Assembly (NCBI GenBank): GCA_964582265.1
Contig: CAZOQT010000001.1
Location: forward strand, 943 to 64,942
Source: an uncultured Candidatus Peribacteria bacterium
GTDB lineage: Bacteria; Patescibacteriota; Gracilibacteria; UBA1369
DNA: 64,000 nt
Reading direction: 5' to 3'
The notes under the pieces were generated by a model. It was given only the letters and a program-made list of their open reading frames with translations. It did no database searches and was not told where the DNA came from. Positions 62,941 to 62,983 of the stretch are shown here, piece after piece (positions within the stretch are counted from its first letter, which is position 1; each line of letters opens with the position of its first letter). The position numbers were made by a program, and so were the translations under genes.

Positions 62941-62949
62941 AGTTTAATA

Positions 62950-62968
62950 AATTATAAATTAAAAATTA
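62950..62968 (-). promoter_or_regulatory. Conserved 19-nt AT-rich element (coding strand TAATTTTTAATTTATAATT) 9 nt upstream of the groEL ATG
   Basis: Identical in sequence and spacing to the element upstream of frr (59281-59299). It lies in the groES-groEL intergenic spacer. Confidence 0.4.
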
Positions 62969-62983
62969 AGTTTAGCGCGCCAA

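Follow-up and report, generated by a model that had tools for sequence, protein, structure and literature searches.

The question raised by a 64,000-nt stretch of DNA from an uncultured Candidatus Peribacteria bacterium (contig CAZOQT010000001.1 of assembly GCA_964582265.1, positions 943 to 64,942; the whole stretch is referred to below as the window) is why two of its genes, groEL and frr, are preceded at the same distance by the same A/T-rich 19-mer. An earlier note on this DNA had reported the identity and had proposed either a translation-initiation or standby element independent of the Shine-Dalgarno (SD) sequence, or an internal promoter. Both copies of the 19-mer (TAATTTTTAATTTATAATT, minus strand) were located, at positions 62950-62968 and 59281-59299, with exactly 9 nt between each of them and the ATG of the 548-aa Cpn60 open reading frame (ORF; 61294-62940) or of the 186-aa RRF ORF (58711-59271). 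They are the only exact copies in the 1.18-Mb genome (a 96%-complete metagenome-assembled genome, MAG, of 70 contigs and 38.5% GC, labeled G000, in which 1041 genes were scored). The 19-mer belongs to a family of heptad arrays that constitute a start-locked, oriented, conserved and mostly intercistronic signal on the mRNA strand of an SD-less genome, and these heptads, the 19-mer included, are probably a lineage-specific non-SD translation-initiation element.

The functional unit is a heptad repeat, (TAATTNN)n, usually TAATTAY, of which the 19-mer comprises 2.7 units. With up to 3 mismatches allowed, the window contains 11 matches to the 19-mer against 0.62 expected, and these matches recur at 7-nt offsets; genome-wide, TAATT words are found 7 nt apart 295 times, 14 nt apart 170 times and 21 nt apart 110 times, over a background of ~25-30. 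On the coding strand TAATT is followed by A (75%) and then by C or T (85%), TAATTAC and TAATTAT being the commonest units. The groEL and frr copies are built from the rarer units TAATTTT and TAATTTA; instead of a unique element that was duplicated, they represent two members of one repeat family that share these minor units. The idea of a discrete duplicate was rejected, as the flanks of the two copies differ, a 95%-identical relative has other filler bases in its orthologous groEL spacers, and many arrays have longer identical TAATTAC/TAATTAT stretches in common. A heptad array was defined as at least two TAATT in 7-nt register within -50..-1 of a gene, with dinucleotide shuffles of each upstream region as the control, and arrays of this kind precede 60 of the 1041 genes compared with 1.8 ± 1.3 in the shuffles, a signal that exceeds the A/T-rich composition to which, as the earlier note had allowed, the element might be due. 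The arrays comprise two to five units; because 7 mod 3 = 1, each of the three reading frames meets a UAA once three units are present, and AUG, GUG and UUG are absent from the array.

The arrays are locked to start codons. Among 122 unique array loci, 82 end no more than 15 nt from a start codon, where only the starts of ORFs with a length of 60 aa or more were counted. Since TAATTA is a palindrome, arrays are visible on both strands, and it is the seventh base that gives their orientation: by this measure 64 of the 73 scorable loci are oriented toward the adjacent gene (64:9). The start positions of TAATT peak at -15..-12, -22..-19 and -29..-27, and the end of the last TAATT in the arrays lies either 3-4 or 7-11 nt upstream of the ATG; every array thus places one TAATT 7-11 nt from the start. 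The element described earlier as a 19-mer at 9 nt thus retains its sequence, but neither its discreteness nor its fixed spacing. In 42 genes of the genome the word also stands in a second register nearer to the start, with AATT directly before the ATG (AATTATG).

Gene context is equally specific: arrays precede 29% of the genes with a same-strand gap of 26-60 nt, 4-5% of long-gap genes and 2.5% of divergent genes, the frequency before the latter being ~10-fold lower than in the 26-60-nt same-strand spacers. On contig C5, most genes of the ribosomal-protein operon follow an array or a degenerate version of one, with arrays at nearly every second gene, and altogether arrays are found at 8 of 27 ribosomal-protein operon genes compared with 52 of 1014 genes elsewhere (p = 7e-5). 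The genes preceded by arrays include those of uL6, uS5, uS11, uS4, bL17, uS9, SSB, GAPDH, NusA, Hsp20, GroEL, RRF, HPF and GreA, and their codon usage is closer to that of ribosomal proteins (median 0.663 vs 0.637, p = 2e-4, with the reference operon left out), in line with the link to expression level that the earlier note had envisaged. The predicted structure of the arrays is weak (minimum free energy, MFE, -1.5 to -3.9 kcal/mol, no stronger than shuffles). Some arrays follow GC-rich hairpins such as GGCCGTAAGGCC (the C6:3848 region of G000 and similar spacers), and these hairpins may be intercistronic stabilisers or attenuators.

The sites reported in the window illustrate the family. At groEL the array consists of three TAATT units (TAATTTT TAATTTA TAATT), the last of which lies 9 nt before the ATG at 62940, within the 43-nt spacer (62941-62983, minus strand) that separates the gene from groES, encoding Cpn10; the spacer reads from the groES stop codon TAA through TTGGCGCGC into an A/T-only tract with the array, and its predicted structure is weak (MFE -2.5 kcal/mol vs -4.8 in shuffles). 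At frr (ATG at 59271) the array has an extra degenerate unit upstream (59300-59306) and makes up nearly all of the 33-nt spacer (59272-59304, minus strand) behind pyrH, which encodes an amino-acid kinase family protein. The close variants noticed earlier before hpf (20646-20664, 17/19 identical, 8 nt before the ATG) and greA (11917-11935, 16/19 identical, 7 nt before the ATG) are exactly as described, and both are parts of four-unit arrays on the minus strand, TAATTAC TAATTTT TAATTAT TAATT at 20646-20671 (hpf ATG at 20637) and TAATTAC TAATTAT TAATTAC TAATT at 11917-11942 (greA ATG at 11909). On the plus strand, a three-unit array (TAATTAT TAATTAT TAATT, 9638-9656) is found 3 nt before the ATG of an ORF for a 130-aa predicted membrane protein (9660-10052).

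Behind the arrays stands a shorter core, YTAAY, which was compared in seven genomes (G000 and six related Peregrinibacteria, other families included) and in 78 readable groEL leaders of relatives, i.e. of Candidatus Peregrinibacteria/Peribacteria MAGs from the candidate phyla radiation (CPR). Among divergent genes 17% have YTAAY starting at -17..-13, among same-strand genes 20-40% and among overlapping genes 13%, compared with ~3% of controls; for genes no more than 8 nt apart the values are 13.5% vs 3.0% (p = 1e-5), although in these genes the core must lie within the upstream ORF. The peak at -17..-13 is present in all seven genomes, one of them with 51% GC, and in four of the seven no 5-mer is more enriched in -25..-1 than TAATT. 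In the genome with 51% GC, which comes from the same family as G000, TAATT is enriched 9-fold in -25..-1; low genomic GC therefore does not account for the A/T word near starts.

In the groEL leaders of relatives, YTAAY starts at -17..-13 in 58 of 78 cases, mostly at -17 to -15, with a second T-T-A-A/T 7 nt further upstream; the word at the motif position is TAACT or TAATC, neither of which is palindromic, G makes up 1.9% of -25..-1, and an SD core is present in only 2 of the 78. Strong heptad phasing is found only in the genus of this bacterium (G000 and a second species, G001), and it is weak in one family member. Between the two species, arrays are kept at orthologous genes, while the number of units, the filler bases and sometimes the presence of the array differ. 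As relatives keep the position of YTAAY while arrays vary, it is the word and its distance to the ATG that are conserved, not the 19-mer itself. The sole full AGGAGG before the ATG among the 78 leaders belongs to the MAG 'bacterium DBS2-1.bin143', one of the most distant relatives, which may mark the edge of the SD-less clade.

The SD sequence itself is scarce. Its core, counted as a 4-mer at -20..-4, precedes 38 of 1041 genes (3.7%) in G000 and 2-8% of genes in the six relatives, and it is present at none of the four genes discussed above, as the earlier note had stated. G is depleted to 8-12% at -16..-1 and to ~10% at -16..-5, and A is favoured at -3. Candidatus Peribacter riflensis has likewise been listed as SD-scarce, with 7% (PMC10783764). 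The 16S rRNA gene was not found in this MAG and the anti-SD was read in relatives only: the 16S rRNA of 12/12 relatives, one of them of the same genus, ends in GGATCACCTCCTTT, with CCUCC kept. All 12 relatives also have GGAG (CCTCCTTTCTAGGAG) 4-6 nt after CCUCC, past the end of the 16S, and this GGAG may fold back on the anti-SD in the precursor, or it may belong to an ordinary pre-rRNA processing stem. The 16S genes of several relatives are 1577-1630 nt long, which suggests insertions, common in CPR. Internal 16S words TAATT/AATTA (at the tip of helix 44, in the 450 region and in the GGAATTATTGGGCG stretch), considered as partners of the motif, occur at chance level and are not claimed as such. 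Neither did we use the depletion of ATG near starts, known from Bacteroidia, as the value obtained here (observed/expected 0.39 at -10..-3) is partly created by the start rule.

A gene that departs from this pattern encodes a probable bS21 of 68 aa (C9:21344, region C9:21270-21550). It has its own promoter and an extended SD, GAGAGGGGGTGA, 6 nt before the ATG. The protein is divergent (Pfam score of 23.5 bits, below the cut-off of 27), and its best matches in the PDB are bS21. The sequence GAAAGG(A/G)GGTGA stands 5-8 nt before the ATG of the bS21 homologue in 25 of 30 Peregrinibacteria genomes, G000 included. In Bacteroidia, the bS21 gene rpsU alone keeps a strong, extended SD, the proteins bS21, bS18 and bS6 occlude the anti-SD and thereby make the ribosomes SD-blind, and ribosomes free of bS21 translate rpsU (PMC7797042, PMC9976891, PMC13000453); the pattern of an extended SD at rpsU has been reported for Bacteroidia and Chlorobia, with CPR unmentioned in PMC9976891 and PMC13000453. 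By analogy, the extended SD at the bS21 gene would explain why the anti-SD is retained, and this signature agrees with, and supports, an SD-independent mode of general initiation in this lineage. It also suggests that occlusion of the anti-SD together with autoregulation of rpsU may extend beyond Bacteroidota.

Ahead of its start codons the genome has an A/U tract poor in G, in which a YUAAY core is locked in position, starting 17-13 nt upstream of the AUG, and in this genus the core has been expanded to tandem UAAUUAY heptads, which take up the short intercistronic spacers of highly expressed operons. Taken as a translation-initiation element, the heptads would work as follows. In the mRNA the array could serve as a ribosome-loading or standby site, in which the tandem units would present the core to the 30S subunit in several registers, at the platform position equivalent to that of the SD, so that the first downstream AUG would be selected; the units would also keep the spacer free of start codons and of G. 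The reader may be the S1 homologue encoded in this genome (C24:13237-14448, 403 aa, four S1 domains, i.e. four OB folds) or another component of the platform. That arrays top out at 4-5 units would be compatible with one heptad per OB fold, which is a speculation. The wider system would resemble that of Bacteroidia, with the anti-SD kept and an extended SD at the probable bS21 gene. Of the proposal made in the earlier note, the SD-independent initiation or standby function is favoured by the position locking, the strand orientation, the preference for intercistronic spacers and highly expressed genes and the order-wide conservation of YTAAY, while the 19-mer form and the fixed spacing are abandoned. 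Moreover, YTAAY is found before first and internal genes alike, which is the same argument as the one that defines non-SD ribosome-binding sites in group B of GeneMarkS-2, where the first and the internal genes of operons share one upstream non-SD motif (PMC6028130).

Several results weigh against this interpretation. Arrays are found in ~6% of genes and the core at its preferred position in ~20%, hence the signal cannot be obligatory. An unbiased expectation-maximisation motif search in -30..-1 of all genes returned only a weak, poorly localised TAWTT; not all genes, but a subset of them, carry the signal. The start region is not more accessible where arrays are present (mean unpaired probability at -20..+10 of 0.52 vs 0.53, p = 0.41), and the 3' tail of the 16S rRNA of relatives, GGAUCACCUCCUUUCUAG, contains no complement to the motif (RUUAR or AAUUA). 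The frr copy coincides with a promoter-like match (TTGGAA-17-TATAAT, 10/12). Finally, gene starts were taken from a simple ORF caller, as the first ATG of the ORF.

The last but one of these points bears on the internal promoter that the earlier note had considered as an alternative, in which leaderless or near-leaderless transcripts of each gene would start from -10 boxes supplied by the arrays or by the TATAAT within the groEL/frr variant. We regard it as very unlikely, although that variant has a perfect TATAAT whose end lies 10 nt upstream of the ATG, and although TAATT at -15..-12 lies near the site of the -10 box in leaderless genes (~10 nt in group C, PMC6028130). The TATAAT, which had been taken as the hint of a promoter, arises only at the TAATTTA|TAATT junction and is a by-product of it, and a TAnnnT hexamer is absent from 23 of the 33 arrays with at least three units. 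Arrays are rare (2.5-5%) before divergent or long-gap first genes and common within operons. The first genes have predicted canonical promoters, TTGACA-16/18-TATAAT (TAnnnT) matches with the end of the -10 box 21-44 nt upstream of the ATG, which predicts leaders of 15-37 nt with the motif included; only ~7 of ~120 promoter-like matches end 3-8 nt before an ATG, with a handful at 6-8 nt, and the promoter-like count in the region equals that in shuffles (13 vs 11.4). There is no -35 box in the groEL spacer, and groES has a predicted promoter and operator of its own; given the position of that promoter, the elements of groES and groEL lie within one predicted transcript. The palindromic TAATTA core, repeated in phase before a set of growth and stress genes, could also be imagined at the DNA level, as an operator array by which a regulator or a nucleoid protein co-regulates growth genes. 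This is extremely improbable in view of the location of most sites inside operons rather than at promoters and of the non-palindromic TAACT or TAATC found at the same position in relatives; besides, the 64:9 orientation by the seventh base and the avoidance of G on the mRNA strand indicate a constraint at the level of RNA.

A constraint on RNA could also reflect processing or stability, if the A/U heptads were endoribonuclease sites at which polycistronic mRNA is cut into monocistronic mRNAs with short leaders and differing stability. Enzymes of the RNase E/Y type prefer A/U-rich single strands, and the arrays are concentrated in intercistronic spacers of operons, are single-stranded by prediction and are sometimes preceded by GC hairpins. 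We nevertheless consider processing unlikely: the core stands equally far from the ATG in the predicted primary leaders of first genes and inside the upstream ORFs of overlapping genes, where it has no obvious processing role, and initiation is the better fit for a signal whose position is fixed by the start codon and not by the stop codon upstream. The arrays might, on the other hand, have no function, being a microsatellite-like expansion of a heptad that fits A/T-rich, G-poor spacers and spreads by replication slippage as harmless filler. Such a neutral origin would account for the fast change in the number and presence of units between orthologous loci of the two species of the genus, for the confinement of strong phasing to this genus (weak in one family member) and for the lack of improved accessibility. 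Slippage, however, explains copy number at one locus and not the same unit at ~80 separate loci, and neutral filler should not be nearly absent from convergent and divergent spacers, oriented 64:9, phased with the ATG and enriched in highly expressed genes, nor should its single-copy core occupy a fixed position order-wide; neutrality is thus very improbable.

The predicted groESL promoter (TTGACG-17-TATTAT, 63360-63395, minus strand) overlaps an inverted repeat, TTAGCACTT-N9-GGGTGCTAA, which we take to be CIRCE-like on the basis of the consensus TTAGCACTC-N9-GAGTGCTAA. The sequence thus suggests HrcA-type heat-shock control of groESL in this CPR genome. The predicted 5' leader of groES (CTTAATTTTTTAATCTT-ATG) contains a single TAATT at -15 (63303-63307, minus strand). 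At hpf, a short array of the opposite orientation is found at 20722-20734 (TAATTAA TAATTAG TATTTAG TAATTAG on the minus strand), just past the stop codon of the gene upstream, and after it comes GGGGATGTATAAT, which may serve hpf as a separate promoter and lies ~60 nt upstream of the hpf array.

Within the reading of the heptads as a translation-initiation element, a bolder version can be formulated, which we regard as possible but doubtful. The UAAUUAY heptads would form a third kind of ribosome-binding signal, modular and sequence-specific, based neither on SD pairing nor on the A-run of Bacteroidia, with a dedicated reader (one OB fold of S1 per heptad, or another rRNA or protein site of the 30S platform) and with the number of units, from 1 to 5, setting the translation level of the cistron; this would be part of a system within CPR that independently reached the solution of Bacteroidia, the anti-SD being reserved for the autoregulation of bS21. 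In the literature searched, including searches on the heptad sequence and on ribosome-binding sites of Peribacteria, we found no description of the motif, only the scarcity of SD sequences in Candidatus Peribacter (PMC10783764). The motif offers a concrete experimental target in a group that cannot yet be grown, and a usable start-site model for gene finders applied to CPR genomes.

Among the known systems, the motif is not a Shine-Dalgarno sequence, as it lacks complementarity to the 3' tail of the 16S rRNA of relatives. The A/U-rich, S1-dependent translational enhancers of E. coli are defined by composition, with no fixed word, and are neither phased nor locked to the start. PMC4535381 mentions such enhancers in general terms. 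They resemble the heptads as single-stranded A/U tracts just upstream of the start that could recruit the 30S subunit without an SD, and a four-domain S1 is encoded here; the heptads differ from them as a fixed, phased and start-locked word, whose binding by S1 is hypothetical. The epsilon enhancer of phage T7 gene 10, UUAACUUUA, also acts without an SD, and its proposed pairing with helix 17 of the 16S rRNA is disputed. Many groEL leaders of relatives read TTAACTTT at the position of the motif, and both are short U/A/C words proposed to act without an SD; however, this genus uses UAAUUAY, for which no 16S complementarity is established. With the -10 boxes of leaderless genes in group C the heptads have in common an A/T-rich, hexamer-like word ~10 nt before the ATG, which in the groEL/frr variant even spells TATAAT, but they occur mainly before internal genes of operons, mostly lack TAnnnT, and are accompanied by predicted promoters located further upstream. 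From a neutral microsatellite they differ in that their occurrence is tied to gene starts, strand and context.

The closest likeness is to genomes with non-SD ribosome-binding sites, i.e. group B of GeneMarkS-2 and Bacteroidia, in which SD sequences are nearly absent and the 16S anti-SD is kept (PMC6028130, PMC6847099, PMC9976891). As in these genomes, one non-SD motif stands ~9 nt upstream of the first and the internal genes of operons, and as in Bacteroidia, the leaders are G-poor and A/U-rich, with A at -3, the bS21 gene with its extended SD excepted; sequestration of the anti-SD, as in Bacteroidia, is putative here. Unlike Bacteroidia, the bacterium belongs to CPR/Patescibacteria and not to Bacteroidota, its word is YUAAY/UAAUU instead of the A-run of Bacteroides and Flavobacterium, and in this genus the word is arranged in phased tandem heptads of 2-5 units, mostly in intercistronic spacers. 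The choice of start codons without an SD has been studied experimentally almost only in Bacteroidia, and Peregrinibacteria would provide a distant second case, in which the signal is much more explicit: a defined word, at a defined distance, in countable heptads before the most highly expressed genes.
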